A program made the position numbers and the translations under genes. Of a DNA stretch of 48,677 bases, positions 22-44,623 are shown in pieces. The notes beneath the pieces were generated by a model. It did not search any database and was not told the DNA's origin. It was given only the letters and a program-made list of their open reading frames with translations. Position 1 is the first letter of the stretch. Each line of letters starts with the position of its first letter. This stretch comes from Minisyncoccota bacterium (GTDB taxonomy: Bacteria; Patescibacteriota; Minisyncoccia; Phycocordibacterales; UBA9973): positions 1 through 48,677 of the forward strand of contig JARLIG010000003.1 of assembly GCA_031291825.1 (NCBI GenBank). Reading direction: 5' to 3'.

Positions 22-61
22 CAGTTTCGAGGTCTGTAAGCTACCTCCCGACCAACGTCTG
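22..61 (-). repeat. Degenerate copy of the dispersed bipartite GACGT palindromic element
   Basis: Reverse complement reads CAGACGTTGGTCGGGAGGTAGCTTACAGACCTCGAAACTG. This is collinear with the copy at 18812-18855 (CAGACGTTGGACGTCTGGAAGCTTACAGACGTGGAGCGTCTG), including the shared spacer AGCTTACAGAC. Lies just 3' of the tRNA-Tyr gene. Confidence 0.55.
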
Positions 62-3179: not shown

Positions 3180-3188
3180 TTTTTTATG

Positions 3189-3230
3189 AAAAGACTCTTC
3201 CTTTACGAGGAAGAGTCTTTTTGCTGTATT
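3189..3230 (+). terminator. Rho-independent terminator
   Basis: Perfect 14-bp stem AAAAGACTCTTCCT / AGGAAGAGTCTTTT with loop TTACG, followed by a T-rich tract. Confidence 0.75.
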
Positions 3231-4654: not shown

Positions 4655-5599
4655 ATGGAAAACTTCTTTTCATCAGAGGGTTTTAAACATTTCGTTCTAG
4701 ACCTAGTATTTAGTATTAAAAAACATGAGAAAATTATTTCTTATGTTTTTGGTGCGATTATATTTTTAGTACTTTCTTATTTTTTTTTATTAAGCGCGCC
4801 GGTAAATTTTCCAAAATCTTCTGTGATAGGAATAGATTCAGGAATGAGTCTGCGTAGTGTTTCAGCTCTCTTGAAAAATGACCAAGTCATACGTTCTCGG
4901 GTAATGTTCGAATATTCAGTAATAATATTGGGTGGAGAAAAACACATAGTTTCAGCTGATTATTCTTTCCCAAGTAGTCTATCAGTTTGGCAAGTTGCGA
5001 TGAGTATCATGAAGGGTGAGCATAAATCACCAGCTGTTTTGGTGACCATTCCAGAAGGTTTTAATTTAAATCAGATAGCAGATGTTTGTAAATTAAAATT
5101 AATTAATTTTAATGAGACTCAATTCTTAACAGAGACTGAGAACATGGAAGGATATCTTTTTCCGGATACTTATTTTTTCTTAAGTAATGCAAACGAGGAA
5201 GATGTTGTAAAATCCATGAATGAAAATTTTCAGAAAAAAATCACACCACTTTTACCACAAATAAATGCTTCTGGTCATTCAGAAAAAGACATCATAACGA
5301 TGGCATCTATTTTAGAAGGAGAAGCTCAGGGTGATACTGACATAGGAATTATTTCTGGAATTTTATGGAAAAGAATTAAAATTGGTATGCCGCTGGAGGT
5401 TGATTCTGCGCCGGAGACTTATAAAACCAAAGGTTTGCCGGAAAACCCCATTAACAATCCAGGATTGGAAGCTATTTTAGCCGCGATTAATCCGCAAAGT
5501 TCGCCTTATCTTTATTATTTGCATGATAAAAATGGTAATATTCACTATGCTACGACTTTTGCACAGCATCAGGCAAACATTAGAGAATATTTAAAATGA
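4655..5599 (+). CDS. mltG: Endolytic murein transglycosylase MltG (YceG-like)
   Basis: Single N-terminal TM helix, EGYLFPDTYFF signature, ASILEGEA catalytic region. Confidence 0.85.
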   Translation: MENFFSSEGFKHFVLDLVFSIKKHEKIISYVFGAIIFLVLSYFFLLSAPVNFPKSSVIGIDSGMSLRSVSALLKNDQVIRSRVMFEYSVIILGGEKHIVSADYSFPSSLSVWQVAMSIMKGEHKSPAVLVTIPEGFNLNQIADVCKLKLINFNETQFLTETENMEGYLFPDTYFFLSNANEEDVVKSMNENFQKKITPLLPQINASGHSEKDIITMASILEGEAQGDTDIGIISGILWKRIKIGMPLEVDSAPETYKTKGLPENPINNPGLEAILAAINPQSSPYLYYLHDKNGNIHYATTFAQHQANIREYLK

Positions 5600-5604
5600 A
5601 AAAG

Positions 5605-5650
5605 ATACAGACGTTGGACGTCTGGGGAACCGAGACGTCCAACGTCTATA
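5605..5650. repeat. GACGT palindromic element copy (inverted pair)
   Basis: CAGACGTTGGACGTCTGG, then GGAACCG, then AGACGTCCAACGTCT. The arms are reverse complements and each arm is itself a hairpin. Starts 6 nt after the mltG stop. Confidence 0.8.
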
Positions 5651-5660
5651 TCAAAATTAT

Positions 5661-6188
5661 ATGAAAAAACACAATTTTGCTTTTATTGATATAGAAACTA
5701 CAGGCTTAAACTTATTAAAGAATGAGATTATTGAAATTGGCTGTGTTCTCACAACACCTGACTTAAAAGTAATCGAAGAATTTGAATTGAAAATAAAACC
5801 AGAACATATAGAAACAGCTAACCAAATTGCTCTCAAGGTAAATCATTACAATAGAGAAGATTGGGAATCAGCTCTTAGTTTAGAAAAAGCTATTAAAATA
5901 TTTTCTAAAAAAGTTAGAGACTGTATTATGGTTGGACACAATGTATCTTTTGACTCTGGGTTTTTAGAATATACTTTTAATCAATTTAAAATAAAAAATC
6001 CGATGCATTATCACAAGTTAGATACTATTTCTATTGCTTGGGCAAAATTTCACAACGATCCAAGCTTCGAGCATTTCTCTTTACATGAAATGTGTTTGCA
6101 TTTTGGTATAAAAAACGAGCGTGCACATTCTGCTTTGCCTGATGCTCGTGCCACATATGAGCTTTACAAAAAACTCATGTCTCTGTAG
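5661..6188 (+). CDS. DEDDh 3'-5' exonuclease (DnaQ / Pol III epsilon-like)
   Basis: Exo motifs FIDIETTGL, VGHNVSFDSGFL, HSALPDA. Confidence 0.8.
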   Translation: MKKHNFAFIDIETTGLNLLKNEIIEIGCVLTTPDLKVIEEFELKIKPEHIETANQIALKVNHYNREDWESALSLEKAIKIFSKKVRDCIMVGHNVSFDSGFLEYTFNQFKIKNPMHYHKLDTISIAWAKFHNDPSFEHFSLHEMCLHFGIKNERAHSALPDARATYELYKKLMSL

Positions 6189-6293
6189 AATCAAAATATT
6201 CTCTAAAAAGCCCGCATAATTTTCTGCTGAAAATTTGCTTAGACTTCGGCCCGTCGGCCTACGTAAGACTTTTTATAGAACATTTTGATTCTA
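6186..6293. mobile_element. MITE-like element with 25-nt terminal inverted repeats filling the whole intergenic spacer
   Basis: Left TIR is TAGAATCAAAATATTCTCTAAAAAG (6186-6210). Reverse complement of 6269-6293 is TAGAATCAAAATGTTCTATAAAAAG (2 mismatches in 25). The left end is the TAG stop of the upstream gene and the right end is the A of the mnmA ATG. The GC-rich interior contains AATTTTCTGCTGAAAATT. Confidence 0.6.
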
Positions 6294-7453
6294 TGAGTAA
6301 CACAAAGAAGAAAATTGTATTCGTTGGACTTTCGGGAGGTGTAGACTCTGCGGTTTCTGCTGCGCTTCTGAAAAAACAAAATTATGAAGTTGTCGGAGTT
6401 TTTATCAAAACTTGGCATCCGGAGTTTTTAGTGTGCAACGAAGAAGAAGAACGTATGGACGCGATGCGCGTGGCAGCTCATTTAGATATCCCTTTTTTAA
6501 CTTTTGATTTTAGCGACGTTTACAAAAAAGAAGTTGCAGACTATATGATAAATGAGTATAAAACTGGAAGAACTCCAAATCCAGATGTGATGTGCAATAA
6601 AGAAGTGAAGTTTGGAGCATTTCTCAAAAAAGCACTTTCAATGGGTGCTGACTTTGTGGCGACTGGACATTATGCACAAGAGTTTTCAGAGCAGAATTTT
6701 AAAGGCGGAAGGTTCCGCCCGAAGGGTGGAGTAATGCCGAAAAATTCTGCTCTGAAAACGTTTTTAGTTAAAGGAATAGACCCCTCAAAAGATCAAAGTT
6801 ATTTTTTGTGGACATTAAAACAAGAACAATTAAGCAAAATTTTATTTCCAATTGGATATTTAAAAAAGACCGAAGTAAGAATTTTGGCGAAGAAATTTAA
6901 ATTACCAGTTGCGGAAAAGAAAGACAGTCAAGGGATTTGCTTTTTAGGCGCGGTAGATTTAAAAGAATTTTTGAAGCATTATATTAAATCAAAAAAAGGG
7001 AAAGTTGTTAATGAAAAAGGGGAGGATGTTGGCTATCATGATGGAGTAGTTTTCCACACATTAGGGGAGAGACATGGATTTACAATTACTAAAAAAGGTT
7101 CAACGGATGGCGCGTATTATGTCATTGGTAAGGATATTAAAAAAAATATTTTAGTTGTTTCGCAATCCCCAGACGTTGGACTGACGTTGGACACCCGCCA
7201 AGGGCGGATGTCCAACGTCGACCCAGACGTCCAACGTCTGGAACAAACTAATTGGATTTTAAAAATTCCAAAACCAAATAAAAATTATACAGCGCAAATC
7301 CGTTACCATGGAGAATTTTTTCCTTGTCAGATATTAATCAAATCAAAAACGGAGGTAGAAGTTTTATTCAAAAAACCAGTCATTATTGCCTCTGGTCAAT
7401 CCATTGTTGTTTATGACAAAGATGTTTGCCTGGGCGGCGGAGTGGTTGTATAA
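6293..7453 (+). CDS. mnmA: tRNA 2-thiouridine(34) synthase MnmA, carrying two in-frame palindromic insertions
   Basis: PP-loop SGGVDSAV, ATGHYA, KDQSYFL, DSQGICFLG, C-terminal barrel ending CLGGG. Confidence 0.9.
   Translation: MSNTKKKIVFVGLSGGVDSAVSAALLKKQNYEVVGVFIKTWHPEFLVCNEEEERMDAMRVAAHLDIPFLTFDFSDVYKKEVADYMINEYKTGRTPNPDVMCNKEVKFGAFLKKALSMGADFVATGHYAQEFSEQNFKGGRFRPKGGVMPKNSALKTFLVKGIDPSKDQSYFLWTLKQEQLSKILFPIGYLKKTEVRILAKKFKLPVAEKKDSQGICFLGAVDLKEFLKHYIKSKKGKVVNEKGEDVGYHDGVVFHTLGERHGFTITKKGSTDGAYYVIGKDIKKNILVVSQSPDVGLTLDTRQGRMSNVDPDVQRLEQTNWILKIPKPNKNYTAQIRYHGEFFPCQILIKSKTEVEVLFKKPVIIASGQSIVVYDKDVCLGGGVVV
6683..6758. repeat. Intragenic palindromic element (18-nt perfect inverted repeat, 40-nt GC-rich core)
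   Basis: TTTTCAGAGCAGAATTTT (6683-6700) is the exact reverse complement of AAAATTCTGCTCTGAAAA (6741-6758). The core contains the hairpin GGCGGAAGGTTCCGCC. Translated in frame as FSEQNFKGGRFRPKGGVMPKNSALKT. Confidence 0.8.
7169..7241. repeat. Intragenic copy of the GACGT palindromic element (long imperfect inverted repeat)
   Basis: CCAGACGTTGGACTGACGTTGGACACCCGCC, then AAG, then GGCGGATGTCCAACGTCGACCCAGACGTCCAACGTCTGG. Translated in frame as PDVGLTLDTRQGRMSNVDPDVQRLE. Confidence 0.8.
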
Positions 7454-14319: not shown

Positions 14320-14329
14320 TTTTATTATT

Positions 14330-14348
14330 TTTTCGCCCTTGGCGAAAA
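14330..14348 (+). other. Short hairpin between rpsD and rpoA (function unclear)
   Basis: TTTTCGCC-CTT-GGCGAAAA, an 8-bp stem. No downstream T-tract, so not a classical terminator. Confidence 0.3.
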
Positions 14349-14381
14349 GTTGTTATATTAAAAGTTTAAAATATAAAAAAT

Positions 14382-16522: not shown

Positions 16523-16555
16523 AAAACACCCCTTTAAGAAGGGGTGTTTTTATGT
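16523..16555 (+). terminator. Rho-independent terminator after rpsI
   Basis: AAAACACCCC-TTTAAGAA-GGGGTGTTTT followed by T. Confidence 0.7.
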
Positions 16556-16567: not shown

Positions 16568-17158
16568 ATGGCGGACGATGAAATTAAAAAAGAACCTGAA
16601 GTTACTGAGCCCGAAGAAGAGGTTGTTGAATTTGAATTCAACGAAGACGGCGAAGAAGATTTAAAGAAAACTCTCAAGAAATTCAGGGCTGATTTAAAGC
16701 AGTTAAAAGCTGAAAAGGAAGAATATTTAAATGGCTGGCAAAAAGAGAGAGCAGAATTTGCCAATTATCGCAAACAAGAAGACGAACGCAGAGCGGTCTT
16801 TTCGGAAGCAATGCGCGAGAGAATTTTGACTCGCTTTTTGTCGGTCATGGATAGTTTCAATATGGCTTTTTCAAATCGTGAGGCTTGGGAAAAAGTAGAT
16901 GAGAATTGGCGTAAAGGTGTGGAATATATTTATTCGCAATTAAATACAATTTTTGAAGAATACGGAGTAAAAGGAGTTGGCGAAGTGGGAGACACTTTTG
17001 ACCCAAATGTTTATGAATCGATTGATGTAGTAGAAACTGATAAAAAAGAAATGGACCACACAGTGGCCACGGTTATTCAGAAAGGATACAAACTAGGCGA
17101 ACGAGTGGTTCGCCCAGCTCGGGTAAATGTCTATGAATACAAAGGTGGAGCTCAATAA
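16568..17158 (+). CDS. grpE: Nucleotide exchange factor GrpE
   Basis: Coiled-coil N-terminal part and C-terminal FDPNVYESI...VIQKGYKLGERVVRPARV. The start is moved to ATG 16568 because the track's GTG 16544 lies inside the terminator stem. Confidence 0.88.
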   Translation: MADDEIKKEPEVTEPEEEVVEFEFNEDGEEDLKKTLKKFRADLKQLKAEKEEYLNGWQKERAEFANYRKQEDERRAVFSEAMRERILTRFLSVMDSFNMAFSNREAWEKVDENWRKGVEYIYSQLNTIFEEYGVKGVGEVGDTFDPNVYESIDVVETDKKEMDHTVATVIQKGYKLGERVVRPARVNVYEYKGGAQ

Positions 17159-18800
17159 AATTTGCATTGATTGTAAAAAAGAATTTGTTGTAGAGACAGG
17201 TGATTTGATTTTGTACGAAAAAGTTGGTTTAAAAATTCACGACCAGTGTTTTTTCTGTCGCCTAAAACAATATGCAGCTTTTTGGGTTTTTGGAAAATTT
17301 CGTAAAGGAGTATCGGATTTAACTGGTGAAAGTTTAATAACTGTATTACCAAATAATTCAAGGTATTCTATTTATAAATCACACGAATGGTATAGTGATG
17401 ATTGGGATCCAATGTCTTTCGGACAGAACTATGATTCTAGTAGATCGTTTTTTGATCAGTTACAAGAACTTCAAGAGAAAATTCCTCGTCCACATCAAAC
17501 AGGGAAAGACAATACTAATTGTGATTGGTGTGATGATGTTTGGTATTCAAAAAATTGCTATCTTTCACGTTCTGTCTTTAAAAGTGAGAATATAAGTTAT
17601 GGCTACAGAGCAATTGAATGCAAAGATTCTTTTGATATTGTAAATTCTTTCAATCTACAAAATTCTTATAATTGTTTTGCTTGTCATAATTCTTTTAATT
17701 TAAATTTTTCTGAAAATTCAAAAGATTGCATTGATTCATACTTCCTTTTTGATTGTCGTAATTGTCAGAATTGTTTTATGTCCTGGAATTTACGCAATAA
17801 GCAGTATTGCATCAAGAATAAACAATATGGGAAAGTTGAATATGAGAAAGAATTAAAAAATATTAAGCTAGATTCATATAAAAACCTTGAAGCCCTTAAG
17901 ACTGAATTAGAAACACATATCAAAGATGAAGCTGTTCATCGTGAGAATTTTAACCTAAAAACAACAAGCTCGGTTGGAAATTACCTGACTAATTGCGATA
18001 AATGTTACAACGTTTTTTCTTATGAAGATTCGCAAAATTGTCGTAATCAACTTCGAGGCTTAGGTAATAAAGATTGCATTGATGGAATGGGTATATTTGG
18101 AACGGTTGAATTATCTGGAAATAATAGTTGTGTTTTTTACTCATATAATGTAAAACATTCATCTTGGTCTATGGGAAAATATTCTGAATATCTTGATATT
18201 TGTGATGATGTTGAATATTGTTTTGGTTGTGTTGGTCTAAAGAAAAAGAAGTATTGTATTTTAAATAAGCAATACAGTAAAGAAGAGTATGAAAAGTTAA
18301 AATCAAAAATTGTGGCTGATATGGAAAAAAGAGGGGAATATGGAAAATTTTTGCCGTATTCAATGGGGATTTGCGGATACAATTTATCTACAGCGACGGT
18401 TTATTTTCCAGAAGTCACAAAGGAAGAAATAATAAATAAAGGTGGTTATTGGTCAGAGGAAGACTTGTCTTCTCAAGACGGTATTTCTTCACTAGAATTA
18501 CCAGATAGTATTTTAGATACTAAACCAGAAATTTCCAATCAACCTTTGATTTGTCCAGAAACAAAATATAGATTTAATATTTCTACAGCTGAATATGAGT
18601 TTCATCAAAGGAAAAATTTTGCTTTACCTCGAATTCATTTTGACTTACGGACCCTAAAAAAGACTCGAAAAACCGTTGTATTAAAGGGCTATCCTTACAA
18701 GTGTTTTTACTGTAAAAAAGATATAATGGCTTATTATCCACCGGAGTGGAATTATCAGAATATATCTTGCGAAGAATGTTATAAGCAAAATATAGCTTAA
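17127..18800 (+). CDS. Cysteine-rich repeat protein of unknown function (about 30 Cys, terminal zinc-ribbon-like CxxC pairs)
   Basis: N-terminal CIDC...CFFC and C-terminal CFYC...CEEC. Internal duplication: CRNCQNCFMSWNLRNKQYCIKNKQYGKVEYEKELKNI versus YCFGCVGLKKKKYCILNKQYSKEEYEKLKSKI. The start overlaps the grpE end by about 26-32 nt. Confidence 0.6.
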   Translation: MSMNTKVELNKICIDCKKEFVVETGDLILYEKVGLKIHDQCFFCRLKQYAAFWVFGKFRKGVSDLTGESLITVLPNNSRYSIYKSHEWYSDDWDPMSFGQNYDSSRSFFDQLQELQEKIPRPHQTGKDNTNCDWCDDVWYSKNCYLSRSVFKSENISYGYRAIECKDSFDIVNSFNLQNSYNCFACHNSFNLNFSENSKDCIDSYFLFDCRNCQNCFMSWNLRNKQYCIKNKQYGKVEYEKELKNIKLDSYKNLEALKTELETHIKDEAVHRENFNLKTTSSVGNYLTNCDKCYNVFSYEDSQNCRNQLRGLGNKDCIDGMGIFGTVELSGNNSCVFYSYNVKHSSWSMGKYSEYLDICDDVEYCFGCVGLKKKKYCILNKQYSKEEYEKLKSKIVADMEKRGEYGKFLPYSMGICGYNLSTATVYFPEVTKEEIINKGGYWSEEDLSSQDGISSLELPDSILDTKPEISNQPLICPETKYRFNISTAEYEFHQRKNFALPRIHFDLRTLKKTRKTVVLKGYPYKCFYCKKDIMAYYPPEWNYQNISCEECYKQNIA

Positions 18801-18811
18801 AATAAGGAGTT

Positions 18812-18855
18812 CCAGACGTTGGACGTCTGGAAGCTTACAGACGTGGAGCGTCTGG
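18812..18855. repeat. GACGT palindromic element copy (bipartite)
   Basis: The perfect palindrome CCAGACGTTGGACGTCTGG is followed by AAGCTTA and then the hairpin CAGACG-TGGAG-CGTCTG. Lies between convergent genes. Confidence 0.8.
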
Positions 18856-18868
18856 AGGGTTATCCACT

Positions 18869-19408
18869 TTACTTTCCGAAAGTTTCAAAGAGAACTTTTT
18901 TGCTTTCTTCGTCGATATGTTCGGTGACGATTATCATCATTTCTGTCGTCAGACCTAAATCTTTTTTTATATTCGTAAATAAATGTTCAAAAGGGAATGG
19001 AGAAATCCAGGCGGAATTTTTTAGACAAACGAAGCCTGCTTTTTTGAGCAAGTAGCGCAAGCTCTCTCGTTCGCTTTTTCTATTTTCTGGTAAATCCAAT
19101 AAAATAATTCTCCATAATCCATCCCAAGAGGTATTTACGAGAGTCGTCTCGCTATCTAATTCCAAACTATGCGCTTTCTTTTTACCTTCTTTAGTTAGGC
19201 GGGCATATTCGTTTTGTGGAGAGGGAATTTGCTCTATTAGTCCAGCATCTCGTAGTCCTTTTAATGAGCGTGTAATGGCATATTTGCCTTGTACGTCTAC
19301 TTTATTAGTGTGAGAAGGATTATTTAGACTTTTAACTATTTCAGGTAGGGAAATAGCGTTTTTTTTGCCCAAAATATTAAGAATTTTATTTGAATAGTCT
19401 TTTTTCAT
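18869..19408 (-). CDS. PaaX-like transcriptional regulator (N-terminal winged helix plus C-terminal Cas2-fold-like domain)
   Basis: The N-terminal wHTH region reads ILNILGKKNAISLPEIVKSL...ITRSLKGLRDAGLIE. C-terminal WDGLWRIILLDLPENRKSERESLRYLLKKAGFVCLKNSAWISP matches the PaaX-type pattern. Confidence 0.55.
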   Translation of the reverse strand: MKKDYSNKILNILGKKNAISLPEIVKSLNNPSHTNKVDVQGKYAITRSLKGLRDAGLIEQIPSPQNEYARLTKEGKKKAHSLELDSETTLVNTSWDGLWRIILLDLPENRKSERESLRYLLKKAGFVCLKNSAWISPFPFEHLFTNIKKDLGLTTEMMIIVTEHIDEESKKVLFETFGK

Positions 19409-21785: not shown

Positions 21786-21792
21786 TTCAGCA

Positions 21793-21824
21793 AACCAAAA
21801 GCCCTTTAAGGGCTTTTGGTTTTA
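21793..21824 (+). terminator. Rho-independent terminator
   Basis: AACCAAAAGCCC-TTTAA-GGGCTTTTGGTT followed by TT. Confidence 0.7.
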
Positions 21825-25435: not shown

Positions 25436-26533
25436 ATGTCTAAAGATTATTACGAAACCTTAGGAATAAATAAAGGTGCGTCAAAAGACGAAATAAAAAA
25501 AGCTTTTTATAAGTTGGCGCAAAAATATCATCCTGATAAAAAGGGTGGTAATGAAGCCAAATTTAAACAGGTAAATGAGGCTTATCAAGTTCTCTCAGAT
25601 GACGCTAAACGTTCAAAATACGACCAGTTTGGCTCGGGATTTGAGAATGCGGGTGCTGGTAACTATGGAGATGCGCAAGGCGGTTTTGGAGGTTTTAACG
25701 CTTCAGACTTTGGAGGTTTTCAGGGCGCAGGTGCTGACTTTGATTTTGGAAACTTAAATGATATCTTTAGTGATTTTTTTGGTGGCGGTATGGGTGGAGG
25801 AAGACCACAAGCACGCCGTGGACGAGATATCTCGACTGAAATTCAAATTTCTTTTTCTGAATCAATTTTTGGCGTCGCTAGAAAAATTTTAATTACTAAA
25901 ACTTCTACTTGTTTGACCTGCCATGGCTCTGGCGCGAAAGCTGGAACAAAGATGGAAACTTGTAAACATTGCAATGGGCAAGGACAGATTCACGAACAAA
26001 AGAGAACAATCTTTGGAAACATTGCCAGTACAAAAATTTGTGAGGTTTGTTTGGGTACTGGAGAAGTTCCCAGAGAAATTTGTGAACATTGCAAAGGCAA
26101 AGGAGTTCTCCGTCGTGAAGAAGAAATTTCAATTAATATCCCAGTCGGAATACGCGACGGGGAAATGATTCGAATGACAGGAATGGGTGAAGCAGTCTTT
26201 AAAGGTACCGCTGGAGACCTTTATATAAAAATAAATGTGATACCACATTCAGTCTTTAAACGTGACGGTAATGACTTGGTAATGAATCTAAATTTGAAAC
26301 TCTCGGACGCGCTCTTGGGAACAAAATATCCGATCCAAACCTTGGATGGAAACATCGAAGTGACGATTCCAGAGGGAGTTTCTATAAATGAAATTTTACG
26401 TGTTAAAGGCAAAGGTGTGCCAACAAAAAATAAAAGAGGAGACTTGCTAATCAAGCTTAACATTAAACTTCCGGAAAAATTATCGCATCAATCTCGAAAG
26501 CTTATTGAGGAGCTCAAAAAAGAAGGAATTTAA
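25436..26533 (+). CDS. dnaJ: Molecular chaperone DnaJ
   Basis: J domain with the HPD motif (KYHPDK). G/F-rich linker. Four Cys motifs: [32 protein letters not shown]. Confidence 0.95.
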
Positions 26534-26548
26534 CCTGTGGAAACCCCT

Positions 26549-26592
26549 CCAGACGTTGGACGTCTGTATGTATACAGACGTCCAACGTCTGG
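26549..26592. repeat. GACGT palindromic element, best-preserved copy (21-nt perfect arms)
   Basis: CCAGACGTTGGACGTCTGTAT-GT-ATACAGACGTCCAACGTCTGG, 15 nt after the dnaJ stop. Confidence 0.85.
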
Positions 26593-26604
26593 GATTAAAA
26601 AATA

Positions 26605-27195
26605 ATGACATTTGAAATAATAATTTTTTTCTCAGTAATAATACAATTGATCGGAGTTTCTTTTTATATAAGAGATATGCTTCGTGGCACCACAAAGCCA
26701 AACCTGGTCACATGGTCTATTTGGGCATTGGCACCACTAATCGGTTCTTGGCTCGAGTGGAAAGCAGGAGCGAGACTTTCCATTTTCCCAGTTTTTATGG
26801 CGGGTTTCAATCCACTTTTAGTTATAGCCGTTGCTTTTGTAATAAAAAAGGGATATTGGAAAATCAAAAAATTTGACGTTTTTTGTGGAGCTCTCGCAAT
26901 ATTTGCATTGATACTTTGGTTGATAACAAAAAATATTTCCATATCAGTATTGTTTGCAATTTTAAGCGATGCTTTAGCGTCTTTGCCTACACTGGCAAAA
27001 TCTTGGACAAACCCAGAGACGGAAACATTCACAGCTTATCTCGGAGGAATAATTGCAAACATCCTAGGATTGGTTGTTATAAAAAATTGGATATTTCCAG
27101 TGTATTCTCTAGGAGTATATTTTATCCTAATGAATACTCTGATTATTGCTTTTATTTTCAGGAAAAAAGTGTTATATTTCAGGAATGAAAAATAA
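26605..27195 (+). CDS. Hypothetical polytopic membrane protein (about 6 TM helices)
   Basis: Hydrophobic throughout. The two halves show a loosely similar layout. No family recognised. Confidence 0.55.
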   Translation: MTFEIIIFFSVIIQLIGVSFYIRDMLRGTTKPNLVTWSIWALAPLIGSWLEWKAGARLSIFPVFMAGFNPLLVIAVAFVIKKGYWKIKKFDVFCGALAIFALILWLITKNISISVLFAILSDALASLPTLAKSWTNPETETFTAYLGGIIANILGLVVIKNWIFPVYSLGVYFILMNTLIIAFIFRKKVLYFRNEK

Positions 27196-31909: not shown

Positions 31910-31935
31910 TCCCCGACTAAAATCGGGGATTTTTT
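31910..31935 (+). terminator. Rho-independent terminator after rplU
   Basis: TCCCCGA-CTAAAA-TCGGGGA followed by TTTTTT. Confidence 0.8.
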
Positions 31936-35558: not shown

Positions 35559-35852
35559 ATTACAACTTAAATACCAACCTTCCAAGGTTGGTATTCTCGT
35601 TTACGAGAATAATCTTGTTCTTTCGGAGGAAAAAAGTGCACATTACTACTACATTTGAGTTGTGGTTTGCAAGAGAAGGAAGTAATACAGAGAGAGAGCA
35701 TCTTACTGTTCCTCCGCGTGTGACTAAACTTCCCTGCGGGTGTATTAGGAACCCACAAGACGCACCCTTTGCGTTAAGGAGAACTAAGGAGGGATGGATT
35801 CATCCCTACGCAAGATGCGAAACACCAGTAGTTGTACATCAGTGTGTCTAAT
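35559..35852 (+). ncRNA. rnpB: Candidate RNase P RNA (bacterial type A-like, reduced); ends uncertain
   Basis: A 490-bp noncoding gap contains blocks resembling CR-I to CR-V in the correct order. CR-I: GGAGGAAAAAAGTGCAC (compare GAGGAAAGUCCGGGC). CR-II: ACAGAGAGAGAGCA (compare ACAGAGAGCA). CR-III: GGGTGTATTAGGAACCCACAAGACGCACC (compare GGGUGAAAGGGUGCGGUAAGAGCGCACC). CR-IV: AAGATGCGAAAC (compare AGAUGAAUGAC). CR-V: ACATCAGTGTGTCTAAT (compare ACAGAACCCGGCUUAU). P2-like pairing TACAACT (35561-35567) with AGTTGTA (35830-35836). P4-like pairing AGTGCAC with GTGTGTCT. The comparison sequences are recalled from the E. coli M1 RNA. Confidence 0.5.
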
Positions 35853-35866
35853 TTGGCACCATAACT

Positions 35867-35909
35867 ATGGCGACCGTTCTCTAAAAGAGACCGGTCGCCA
35901 TTATTTTTT
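35867..35909 (+). terminator. Strong rho-independent terminator
   Basis: ATGGCGACCG-TTCTC...GAGA-C-CGGTCGCCAT (10 + 4 bp stem) followed by TATTTTTT. Confidence 0.8.
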
Positions 35910-35931: not shown

Positions 35932-37308
35932 ATGAAAAACAGAGTTTATCTAAAAGATTTAAAAGACCATGTCGGCAAAGAGGTCATTGTTGCTGGGTGG
36001 GTAGATGTGCGTCGCGACCAAGGCAAAATGGTGTTTTTTGAAATGCGTGATATGACTGGGAAAATACAATGTGTTACCTTACCTGCTCATGGAGAAGCGA
36101 TAGAAAAAGCTAAAGAAATTCGTCCAGAATGGGTTGTTAAAGTTAAAGGGCTAGTTAATAAACGTACAGACAAAAATGCAAATGGCAATGTTGAAATTGA
36201 AGTTTTAAATATTGAAGTTTTAAACAAAGCGGAAACTTTACCCTTTGATATTACAACTGATACAAGTGGAGTTAATGAAGAAACACGTTTAGCCTACCGT
36301 TATCTAGATTTGCGTTCCGACCGAATGCAAAAAAATATCAGAATGAGAAGTGAGTTTGTGAAAAAAGTCCGAGAATTTTTATTTTCCAAAATGTTTACCG
36401 AGATTGAAACTCCACTTTTGACGGAATCAACACCAGAAGGTTCGCGAGACTTCGTCGTACCTTCTAGATTGAACCCAGGTAGCTTTTATGCATTGCCTCA
36501 ATCTCCACAGCAATACAAACAGCTTTTAATGGTAGCTGGCATGGAAAAATATTTCCAAATTGCTCGTGCGATGAGAGATGAGGATTTGCGAGCGGATAGA
36601 GGTTTTGAACATACTCAAGTAGACATAGAGATGTCATTTGTGGAAATGGAGGATGTGATGAATACAGTAGAAGAAATGGTGACAACTGTTGTCGAGTCCA
36701 TGGGCTTTACAATTAAACAAAAACCTTTTCCAAGGATTACTTACAAAGATTCAATGGAAAAATATGGTGCTGATAAGTTTGATATGCGAACAGAAGAAGA
36801 TAAGAAAAATAATATACTGGCATACGCATGGGTGATTAATTTTCCATTCTTCGAAAAAACGGATGACGGCAAATGGACATTTACACACAATCCATTTTCT
36901 ATGCCAATCCCAGAACATTTGGAATGGCTCATGAAAGGGGAGAACATAGAGAATATTTTAACCACCCAATATGATTTAGTGTGCAATGGATATGAAGCTG
37001 GCGGGGGTTCAATTCGTGCCAATAAGCCAGAAATCTTAAAAGCTACTTATCAAGTTATGGGATATTCTGAAGAGGAAATTGAAGATAGAATTGGGCATAT
37101 GCTTAAAGCTTTCAAGTTTGGCGTACCACCACACGGAGGTATCGCATTGGGTGTAGAACGCAATCTTATGAATCTCACGAATGAAACTTATCTACGTGAA
37201 GTTGTAGCTTTTCCTATGACGAGAGGCGGAAAGACATCTGTTATGAATGCGCCGAAACCGCTAGAAGAAAAACAACTCAAAGAATTAAATATAAAAATTA
37301 GTAAGTAA
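35932..37308 (+). CDS. aspS: Aspartate--tRNA ligase, bacterial-type sequence lacking the GAD insertion domain (458 aa)
   Basis: FYALPQSPQQYKQLLMVAG, RDEDLRADRGFEHTQVDIEMSF, GGGSIR, PPHGGIALGVER. Confidence 0.92.
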   Translation: MKNRVYLKDLKDHVGKEVIVAGWVDVRRDQGKMVFFEMRDMTGKIQCVTLPAHGEAIEKAKEIRPEWVVKVKGLVNKRTDKNANGNVEIEVLNIEVLNKAETLPFDITTDTSGVNEETRLAYRYLDLRSDRMQKNIRMRSEFVKKVREFLFSKMFTEIETPLLTESTPEGSRDFVVPSRLNPGSFYALPQSPQQYKQLLMVAGMEKYFQIARAMRDEDLRADRGFEHTQVDIEMSFVEMEDVMNTVEEMVTTVVESMGFTIKQKPFPRITYKDSMEKYGADKFDMRTEEDKKNNILAYAWVINFPFFEKTDDGKWTFTHNPFSMPIPEHLEWLMKGENIENILTTQYDLVCNGYEAGGGSIRANKPEILKATYQVMGYSEEEIEDRIGHMLKAFKFGVPPHGGIALGVERNLMNLTNETYLREVVAFPMTRGGKTSVMNAPKPLEEKQLKELNIKISK

Positions 37309-43232: not shown

Positions 43233-43799
43233 ATGCATTTAGAACAAAAAATAGAAGCAATACTTTTTTTTAAAGGCGAACCAGTCTCTTTGAAAAAACT
43301 TGAGGATATTTTAAAAGTTTCAAAAGAACAAATTGATGAGGCTATTTTAAATTTAAAAAATAATCTTACAAATAGAGGAATAGCGTTGATGGAAAAAGAT
43401 ACAGAAATTACTCTGGGCACGACTCCGGAATTAAGTAAATTGATTGAAGATTTACAAAAAGAAGAATTAAATAAAGAACTTTCCAAGGCTAGTTTAGAAA
43501 CTTTATCAATTATTCTTTATAAAAACGGCGCTAGTCGAGCAGAGATTGATTACATTCGAGGCGTAAATTCTAGTTTTACCTTACGTGCTTTGTCTGTTCG
43601 AGGACTCGTAGAAAAAACGGTAGACACTAAAGATAATCGCCGATACATTTACAAACCAAGCTTTGAACTACTAGCTTTCATGGGCGTCGCTTCAATTGAA
43701 GAGTTGCCGGACTATGCGGAAGTAAGTGGTTCTCTTAACGTAGCTGCAAAAAGTTTAGAAGAAGAAACTACAAAAGAATCAGACGTTGGACAACTGTAA
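43233..43799 (+). CDS. scpB: Segregation and condensation protein B
   Basis: IEAILFFKGEPVSLKKL...SLETLSIILYKNGASRAEIDYIRGVNS...LVEK. Confidence 0.88.
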   Translation: MHLEQKIEAILFFKGEPVSLKKLEDILKVSKEQIDEAILNLKNNLTNRGIALMEKDTEITLGTTPELSKLIEDLQKEELNKELSKASLETLSIILYKNGASRAEIDYIRGVNSSFTLRALSVRGLVEKTVDTKDNRRYIYKPSFELLAFMGVASIEELPDYAEVSGSLNVAAKSLEEETTKESDVGQL

Positions 43800-43821
43800 A
43801 CAGGTGTACAACGTCTGATTC
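43776..43821. repeat. GACGT palindromic element copy overlapping the scpB C-terminus and stop
   Basis: The left arm GAATCAGACGTTGGACAACTG pairs with the right arm CAGGTGTACAACGTCTGATTC. The element encodes SDVGQL-stop. Lies between convergent genes. Confidence 0.75.
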
Positions 43822-43825
43822 TAAT

Positions 43826-44623
43826 TTAAAGGCACTTTGGATTAATACCAAGTACATAATTTTGGATTAAATTTGCTTGGGCGACAAATTGGTCACCATC
43901 AAAGCCTTTTATGTCTGCTTCAGTTACTAAGTTTTTATAATCTTCTGTGAAGCCGATAGAAAGTGGCAAGTAAGACCAGTGCCATTTTTCTTCATCATAG
44001 CCAGTCGGTCTATCGGGACCCTTGGCAGTATAAGTCTGACAGAAGCCATATTCCCAAGCATTCTGCGACATCCAATTGTATACTTCTTTGCCTTCTTCTG
44101 TATTGAAGTATTGAGGATTAGCATTATTAAAATCTATTTCTGTACCCCAGTGATGACGGGAAGTTCCAGGCACCGCACTGTATTCTAATACGTTTTGAAA
44201 TTTTTCTAAATCACTCATCGATTTTGGTAGAGCGTTCCATTTATTGTTCCAAAGATTTTTCTGATAATCAAAATTTCTGGTTGCGGAAGCTATTTTTAAA
44301 TCCACGCCGTCTTTTTGCGCCGCCGCCGCCATTTCCAAGAATGCGCTCAAAGTTTCTTGTCTTAAATACATTGTGTATCCACCGATGTCGTAATTTGCTG
44401 GCACCACAGTAAAGTCGGACCTTTGTGAGGGGTCGAATTGTCCGAGTAAATAAATTTTTTCTGCTGCCTTTGCTTCAGCTTGTTGTTGTGCTAAAAGTTG
44501 TGCAGCAATTATTTCATTTTCTTGTCTTTGTCTTAAATCTAAAAGTGAGGAAGTGACAGCAGGTATCAAAAAAAGAATAAAAACAGCAGCTGGTAATATT
44601 TTTTTGAGAGTATTTTTTTCCAC
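43826..44623 (-). CDS. M15 family D-Ala-D-Ala carboxypeptidase-like peptidase (VanY-type), membrane anchored
   Basis: An N-terminal TM helix is present. ATRNFDYQ and SRHHWGTEIDF form the zinc-binding region. GTG start. Confidence 0.75.
   Translation of the reverse strand: MEKNTLKKILPAAVFILFLIPAVTSSLLDLRQRQENEIIAAQLLAQQQAEAKAAEKIYLLGQFDPSQRSDFTVVPANYDIGGYTMYLRQETLSAFLEMAAAAQKDGVDLKIASATRNFDYQKNLWNNKWNALPKSMSDLEKFQNVLEYSAVPGTSRHHWGTEIDFNNANPQYFNTEEGKEVYNWMSQNAWEYGFCQTYTAKGPDRPTGYDEEKWHWSYLPLSIGFTEDYKNLVTEADIKGFDGDQFVAQANLIQNYVLGINPKCL

Follow-up and report, generated by a model that had tools for sequence, protein, structure and literature searches.

Probable REPINs in Nomurabacteria-type Paceibacteria: an inverted hairpin repeat tied to a RAYT-like Y1 transposase gene

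Introduction

What are the GC-rich palindromes that recur along a densely coding stretch of DNA with only ~36% G+C, in the short spacers downstream of genes and within the genes themselves? The stretch analysed here (the window, 48,677 nt at its full length) carries one of them immediately after dnaJ. A first-pass annotation, made from the sequence letters alone, had named six places where the motif occurs, likened it to REP/BIME and Rickettsia RPE elements and raised a DNA-uptake signal as an alternative. The closest homologues of the proteins encoded in the window (75% identity for MnmA and 86% for DnaJ) place it in the Nomurabacteria-type Paceibacteria (Patescibacteria/CPR).

Most descriptions of REP/REPIN-RAYT systems come from Proteobacteria and other larger-genome bacteria, and Patescibacteria genomes are generally ~1 Mb. 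The pattern known as the REPtron, or REPIN-RAYT, has been described for Proteobacteria (PMC3116915, PMC5581495, PMC6006769), and in a survey published in 2018 the genomes with non-IS Y1 genes were mainly large ones (PMC6006769). Our literature search returned no paper describing a REP/REPIN-RAYT system in Patescibacteria, nor one containing the unit sequence.

Here, we report that the elements are very probably REPINs, i.e. inverted doublets of a 17-21-nt REP hairpin, of Nomurabacteria-type Paceibacteria, tied in relatives of the window to one RAYT-like Y1 (HUH) gene whose product would act on them. Elements of this kind are already known, the RayT identity of the protein is anticipated by database labels, and the finding opens no new kind of biology. 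It does extend the REP/REPIN-RAYT architecture to a bacterial lineage that is among the most reduced, and there the hairpin families co-vary with the protein.

Results

Copies of the repeat in the window

The repeat unit is CCAGACGT-TGG-ACGTCTGG or, written out with its flanks, (TC)CAGACGT-TGG-ACGTCTG(GA), a hairpin with a stem of 7-10 bp and a loop of 3 nt. It is present at all six of the sites named by the first-pass annotation, and the 8-bp stem with a TGG loop described there is confirmed. Allowing up to three mismatches, AGACGTTGGACGTCT has 19 matches in the window where shuffled sequences lead one to expect 0.65 +/- 0.88, and none of 100 shuffles reached that number. There are 10 exact occurrences of the decamer GACGTTGGAC or its complement in the 48.7 kb, and the density of units is ~0.2 per kb.

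The copies were said to occur usually as inverted pairs, and five of the six are indeed doublets whose extended arms face each other 0-3 nt apart; these five are the top GC-rich inverted repeats of the whole 48-kb window (Table 1). The 21-nt perfect arms attributed to the focal copy are likewise as described. Folded as single-stranded DNA, the five intact copies reach -16.5 to -33.4 kcal/mol (z = -5.4 to -10.4), and the copy at 22-61 is too decayed for folding. The spacer AGCTTACAGAC, which had been reported to be common to this decayed copy (on its reverse strand) and the copy at 18811-18856, is real, and the same spacer (TAAGCTTA) is found in a REPIN adjoining the transposase gene of another genome (L090).

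Three copies (5604-5652, 18811-18856 and 26549-26592) start 5-15 nt past the stop codons of yceG, a 557-aa gene and dnaJ, respectively, and a fourth follows tRNA-Tyr, which agrees with the earlier description of four copies after stops or a tRNA. The two copies placed in coding sequence lie inside mnmA and across the last codons and stop of scpB. As had also been remarked, no T-tract follows any of the six copies on the strand of the upstream gene. An Rfam search of the window returned tRNA only.

Table 1. Copies of the hairpin repeat and adjoining head boxes in the window
Feature	Position	Strand	Setting	Remarks
Degenerate REPIN remnant	22..61	-	7 nt past the 3' end of tRNA-Tyr (68-151, minus)	Minus strand CAGACGTTGGtCGggaGG-TAGCTTA-CAGACctCGaaaCTG; z = 0.06 as ssDNA
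REPIN, two inverted units	5604..5652	.	61-nt spacer between yceG (4655..5599) and an RNase T-like gene (5661..6188)	23-nt arms, 91% complementary; -21 kcal/mol, z = -8.8
Composite nested REPIN	7169..7241	+	In frame in mnmA (6293..7453)	Outer half-units 7169-7181 and 7229-7241, inner palindrome 7183-7219; -33.4 kcal/mol
REPIN	18811..18856	.	Between convergent genes 17127..18800 (plus) and 18869..19408 (minus)	Two separate hairpins, unit 1 perfect (10-bp stem), unit 2 degenerate; -16.5 kcal/mol
Head box AGTGGATAAC (plus strand GTTATCCACT)	18859..18868	-	2 nt outside the second unit of copy 18811..18856	One mismatch to TGTGGATAAC
Head box variant TGTGGAAAC	26538..26546	+	Box end lies 2 nt from the extended stem (26549), 3 nt from the focal 17-nt core unit	Box-spacer-hairpin arrangement also in other genomes
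Focal REPIN	26549..26592	.	71-nt spacer between dnaJ (25436..26533) and a membrane-protein gene (26605..27195)	Both inverted units perfect; perfect 21-nt arms (26549-26569, 26572-26592) separated by 2 nt; -25 kcal/mol, z = -10.4; followed by GATTAAAAAATAATG
Degenerate REPIN	43775..43822	.	Forms the final 8 codons and stop of scpB (43233..43799); ends 3 nt short of a convergent vanY-like gene (43826..44623, minus)	23-nt arms, 91% complementary; -20.8 kcal/mol

Distribution and architecture in related genomes

The exact 17-mer is present in 92 stretches of a species-representative genome collection, in which ~70 matches are expected by chance (596 Gb). High-GC matches are single units, as chance predicts, and those outside Patescibacteria are all single units at chance level. 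Low-GC Paceibacteria MAGs hold many units, mostly as inverted doublets, and the unit is multi-copy in several related genomes. We rejected a spread over all classes of Patescibacteria, the matches in Roizmanbacteria, Peribacteria, KSB1 and Sedimentisphaerales being chance-level single units, and we rejected carriage by phages, for which IMG/VR gave just three matches, each to a single unit. A first scan had suggested such a spread in part through TPA MAGs titled 'uncultured Candidatus Saccharibacteria bacterium' (L093, L177 and other CAZ.../CAY... loci). By their DnaJ (at most 86% identical) they are Nomurabacteria-like and close relatives of the window, so the record titles are misleading on taxonomy.

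The placement of units relative to genes was scored for 142 units in the window and related low-GC loci (539 kb). Intergenic DNA holds 95 of these 142 units (67%), and ~19% of the DNA lies outside ORFs; a mechanical ORF call puts 26-35% of units inside ORFs, and in the set of 142 the share located deep within an ORF is 26%. Doublets are strongly biased in order (33 of type '+-' against 3 of type '-+') and mostly have spacers of 5-8 nt, and single units (n = 49) are as common as doublets. The host spacers are co-directional, convergent and divergent in 34, 8 and 3 cases, compared with 302, 68 and 49 in the background, a mild deficit of divergent spacers only. Since MAG assemblies may collapse or lose repeats, all copy numbers are lower bounds. 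Long forms also occur (L078 3205-3293 and 7832-7980; L092 5466-5614 and 7740-7900), in which units stand 55 nt apart around an AT-rich interior that holds a small hairpin of its own (CTTATnnnATAAG) and is repeated between loci, giving BIME-like mosaics.

A RAYT-like transposase gene flanked by the units

Each locus with a cluster of units (L090, L022, L047 and L030) contains an ORF of ~220 aa that is flanked by GACGT units; in four related Paceibacteria genomes the units stand on both sides of such a gene. Its product matches the Pfam family Y1_Tnp at borderline strength (E ~5e-5; 22.8-24 bits for a cut-off of 23) and has an HFH (HUH) motif together with a conserved tyrosine in PYVNxN. Against the NCBI curated RAYT model NF047646 it scores 16-30 bits, where the cut-off is 80, and it carries ~70 extra C-terminal residues. 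The AlphaFold model has a mean pLDDT of 61, with 70-88 in the core and low confidence in the tyrosine-bearing helix. The best Foldseek matches of this model are the TnpA proteins of IS608 and ISDra2 (E = 3e-5) and the E. coli RAYT-REP complex 4er8 (E = 2.5e-4); searching PDB sequences, whether with the protein or with its profile, gave no match. More than 5,800 homologues are present in public data, and the best-scoring ones that bear a source name are all from Patescibacteria. Some sources label homologues 'REP element-mobilizing transposase RayT' or 'REP-associated tyrosine transposase'.

Within the 48-kb window, tblastn found no RAYT-like gene. Among relatives, the GACGT unit stands at the RAYT-like gene in several loci (L093, L094 on the upstream side only, L095, and L101 on the downstream side), and in the closest relative by DnaJ (86%, CAZKWN01) the gene is flanked by the identical unit. 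We infer that the window's own genome encodes a RAYT-like protein as well. The unit flanking the Y1 gene in relatives supports the first-pass proposal of a dispersed, REP/BIME-like family of common descent.

We fetched 80 loci of relatives of the RAYT-like protein and analysed 58 of them. Most are flanked by hairpins, and the sequence of the flanking hairpin follows the protein clade while the hairpin form is kept. In clade A (56-100% identity) the hairpin is NNNNNGT-TGG-ACNNNNN, with stems that include CAGAC, CGGAC, TAGAC, CAGGT, CGGGT, CAGGG and others; in clade B (48-54% identity) it is CAGATAG...CTATCTG. Among 29 distinct clade A hairpins, nine out of ten stem pairs vary on both sides; the hairpins were selected as palindromes, so the fraction that pairs is partly built in. 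G6, G9, T10 and the first loop base are conserved in at least 90% of clade A hairpins, and TGG is the majority loop. At 32 clade A loci, 110 cognate units lie no more than 300 nt from the genes, 1-7 per gene and mostly on both sides.

Several genomes have two divergent transposase paralogues, each with its own flanking hairpin family. Among the 80 loci fetched, which are of MAG quality, at least 12 genomes have two RAYT-like loci; the paralogues are 52-78% identical and never near-identical, which makes the gene unlike a multi-copy IS.

Insertions at orthologous sites

Presence and absence at orthologous spacers had been proposed as a way of telling a dispersed family from plain terminators. 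Around the orthologues of dnaJ (75-86% identity), downstream spacer included, none of the loci of 80 relatives holds a unit. At many of these loci, where genes were not called, the next gene seemingly begins no more than ~10 nt past the dnaJ stop, and in the window the 71-nt spacer at this place is filled by a head box and the REPIN. The spacer between yceG and rnt is without the element in both of the two syntenic relatives, measuring 3 nt in L173 and 26 nt in L175 compared with 61 nt in the window. No target-site duplication is evident at these two sites with empty orthologous spacers. The window copies are insertions and not conserved terminators: the focal copy is not conserved at the orthologous 3' ends, and the sole copy that is conserved across species lies within mnmA.

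In-frame copies and insertion hot spots in MnmA

The REPIN in mnmA is a 72-nt in-frame insert encoding PDVGLTLDTRQGRMSNVDPDVQRLE within the linker that joins the PRC-barrel and C-terminal domains; Pfam domain coverage of MnmA breaks off at residue 291 and restarts at 315. This in-frame linker insertion gives substance to the likeness to Rickettsia RPE that had been drawn from the window. Homologues of MnmA have at the same site either a short form, PDVGRR..DVQRLE, or unrelated inserts, and the short form is intact in L173 and decaying in L175. The mnmA copy is old.

Similar cases are found in other proteins. We examined 11 in-frame copies in 9 genes of relatives, where the hosts are an ABC transporter, GatB, IscS/NifS (twice), GuaA, a Mur ligase (twice), TopA, TsaD and two further ORFs, and the copies encode peptides such as PDVGRLE..RRPTS.

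MnmA of the window has a second in-frame palindromic insert, at 6682-6759 after the GHYA motif; its perfect inverted arms are 19 nt long and, 40 nt apart, enclose an inner GGCGGAAGGTTCCGCC hairpin. Homologues are hypervariable at this site (30-82 residues), and some of them have GACGT-type peptides there, e.g. ADVQRQKFPDVGRLQ in P0040. Other palindromic insert families occupy the MnmA linker in relatives (L257-L259). One element of ~100 nt (CTTTTTCACGGCTCGCAC...GCGTATRCCGAAAAAAG) is found in the mnmA linker of L258 and in the yceG-rnt and rnt-mnmA spacers of L259, and one of these L259 spacers is the orthologue of the window spacer that holds a GACGT REPIN. The MnmA linker and the neighbouring spacers look like recurrent insertion hot spots.

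A head box next to some of the hairpins

A minority of units have a 10-nt head, TGTGGAWAAC, placed 4-5 nt outside the stem. About a third of transposase-gene flanks also carry it, with one orientation shared by the two sides of a gene, and it is retained next to hairpins of different sequence. The head includes GTGG, and the DnaA-box consensus TTATCCACA is exactly complementary to its form TGTGGATAAC. Two boxes adjoin copies in the window (Table 1), the gap at the focal REPIN being 3 nt to the core unit compared with the usual 4-5 nt. In 'double-foot' forms a box stands on either side of one hairpin (examples of boxes are L068 7403-7445 and L126 3769-4120). We also considered whether the TGTGGAWAA box forms oriC-like clusters, and rejected this: the sole cluster found (L126/L068) consists of REP heads on different hairpins.

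Discussion

Alternative explanations

The most natural rival is that the hairpins are primarily transcription terminators, or stabilisers of mRNA 3' ends, that share their sequence by chance. The placement of five of the six window copies at 3' ends of genes or a tRNA fits this, as do the GC-rich, very stable stems and the two copies flagged by a loose terminator scan (18832-18810 and 5624-5608, both on the minus strand only). E. coli REPs also affect mRNA stability. Against these points, the upstream gene's strand has no T-tract and the focal copy is flagged on neither strand, while ordinary terminators with a stem and a T-tract are found elsewhere in the window (3187-3223, 14329-14349, 16523-16550, 21792-21822 and 31910-31929, the last of which reads as a terminator on both strands), which indicates that the organism uses canonical intrinsic terminators. 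A terminator would also not be expected to be missing from the focal spacer in all 80 relatives, many with the next gene seemingly no more than ~10 nt past dnaJ, to sit in frame within essential genes, or to be spread over spacer types in rough proportion to their background; nor would sequence identity across genomes and linkage to a transposase be expected of it. We regard this explanation as very unlikely, though a side effect of the hairpins on mRNA ends is possible. The uptake signal of the Neisseria DUS or Haemophilus USS type raised by the first-pass annotation, which would favour self DNA, finds some encouragement in the inverted pairs downstream of genes, like many DUS and USS, and in the fact that Patescibacteria are thought to take up DNA. 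It is not supported by the comparative data. DUS and USS are fixed words of 9-12 nt in each lineage, common within genes too, and occur roughly once per kb, compared with ~0.2 units per kb here; the unit sequence differs among close relatives, tracking the transposase paralogues; what is conserved is a hairpin whose stem changes are compensatory, and not a fixed word; the units cluster about the transposase gene; and the 17-mer is at chance level outside Patescibacteria. A literature search found no paper tying Patescibacteria to uptake sequences, and we consider an uptake signal extremely improbable.

Two further readings take the palindromes as parts of other known systems. If they were MITEs of DDE-type IS, the units would be terminal inverted repeats and the Y1 gene a mere neighbour. 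The long forms of L078 and L092, whose units are kept 55 nt apart by an AT-rich interior, have this appearance, and in relatives the same sites also harbour palindromic inserts of other, unrelated families. However, target-site duplications are not evident at the two sites with empty orthologous spacers, and no DDE transposase was seen beside the unit clusters, where the Y1 gene recurs in four genomes; dozens more have Y1 homologues with flanking hairpins of their own, and the 49 single units, as common as doublets, are a REP-like trait. We judge a MITE origin highly improbable. A palindrome selected at each site as the operator of a dimeric regulator or nucleoid protein has one attraction, namely that a symmetric double-stranded site keeps its halves matched and so mimics the covariation of a hairpin, and the DnaA-box-like motif beside some copies would suit it too. 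Copies in coding regions and at 3' ends instead of promoters, sites that are not conserved at orthologous positions, and a 3-nt centre that is asymmetric although the doublet order is strongly fixed all speak against an operator, which would moreover leave the linkage to the transposase unexplained; we hold it to be hardly credible.

Four other candidates were rejected. Integron attC sites were considered on the basis of GTTGGAC/GTCCAAC, which fit GTTRRRY/RYYYAAC, but the dominant doublet order is reversed and the copies stand next to housekeeping genes rather than in cassette arrays. A sequencing adapter or assembly artefact is contradicted by the occurrence of the motif in MAGs of many independent projects, and it is not known to match any common adapter. 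The 72-nt spacings in L078 and L092 suggested a CRISPR- or TIGR-like array, but successive units there point in opposite directions, and the AT-rich interior between them is itself repeated. An effect of the AatII restriction site (GACGTC) was dismissed because sister families lack GACGTC.

Comparison with known systems

The REPIN reading agrees with the REP/REPIN-RAYT systems, of which the E. coli REP/BIME elements with TnpA-REP (4ER8) and the Pseudomonas fluorescens REPINs are examples, in most of its features. These systems have GC-rich hairpins in many dispersed and mostly extragenic copies, inverted doublets and mosaic clusters, and a Y1 HUH gene flanked by its own units (REPtron-like), as in the relatives of the window. 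Each protein lineage has its own REP family, divergent paralogues coexist and near-identical duplicates are not found, again as here. The differences begin with the host, which is here a member of Patescibacteria, whereas the non-IS Y1 genes of the 2018 survey were mainly in large genomes (PMC6006769). The protein falls far below the curated RAYT cut-off and is extended at its C-terminus. In canonical REPs the hairpin foot bears a conserved 5' GT[AG]G tetranucleotide (PMC6006769); this foot is missing from most units here, judged by the consensus flanks of 131 units, and atypical REP types without the GT[AG]G tag are reported in the same survey. A subset of our units has the TGTGGAWAAC head, with a GTGG inside it, 4-5 nt from the stem, and a quarter to a third of copies are inside ORFs by the mechanical call.

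Rickettsia RPEs are palindromic repeats of a reduced genome that lie in frame in housekeeping genes, where they lengthen permissive loops of the protein by a short peptide, all of which is also true here. RPEs are ~100-150 bp long and restricted to Rickettsia, and no transposase is known to be associated with them. The elements described here are 44-73 nt, pair two 17-nt hairpins, are linked to a Y1 gene and belong to Patescibacteria. IS200/IS605 elements such as IS608 and ISDra2 have the transposase fold in common with our protein and subterminal hairpins on either side of the gene, and the uniform orientation of the head box on both sides, where it is present, is a further similarity. They differ in that the gene here is not multi-copy and the hairpins are dispersed without it, as in the window with its six elements and no gene. 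The Neisseria DUS and Haemophilus USS resemble the units in their inverted pairs downstream of genes and differ in the points already given: density, hairpin-constrained and lineage-variable sequence, and transposase linkage.

Proposed mechanism and implications

The RAYT-like transposase probably spreads the hairpin. By analogy with E. coli TnpA-REP and the TnpA of IS200/IS605, we infer that the protein binds and cleaves single-stranded hairpins, which it would recognise, for example, on the lagging-strand template. It may then cut and rejoin the DNA beside the hairpin, so that doublets are copied or moved to new sites, and selection would retain insertions only where they are tolerated, i.e. 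in short intergenic spacers and, in frame, in surface loops and linkers of proteins.

A bolder reading would combine two ideas. Long-lived, lineage-specific partnerships of REPIN and transposase would, in spite of the small genomes, reshape essential proteins through in-frame insertion at recurrent hot spots, of which MnmA has two, and the repeats would be more than passengers and coupled to replication control, if the head is a working DnaA site or the place where the transposase acts at the replication fork. Taken together, we think this unlikely.

The REPIN reading has several practical consequences. It explains odd peptide inserts of the PDVGRLE...RRPTS type in conserved Patescibacteria proteins, inserts which may distort annotation and phylogenies. 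REPIN copies offer markers for strain typing and for the quality of MAG assemblies, and the pairs of hairpin and protein provide a natural series for the question of how Y1 enzymes read hairpins.

Other features of the window

Two observations concern neighbouring sequence. The single-copy palindrome ATGGCGACCGTTCTCT / AGAGACCGGTCGCCAT at 35867-35901 has 16-nt arms that are 94% complementary and no T-tract, is unrelated to the GACGT family and lies between the ORFs 35588..35851 and 35932..37308. The 557-aa ORF at 17127-18800, which has no Pfam match, is cysteine-rich and stands directly upstream of the copy at 18811-18856.
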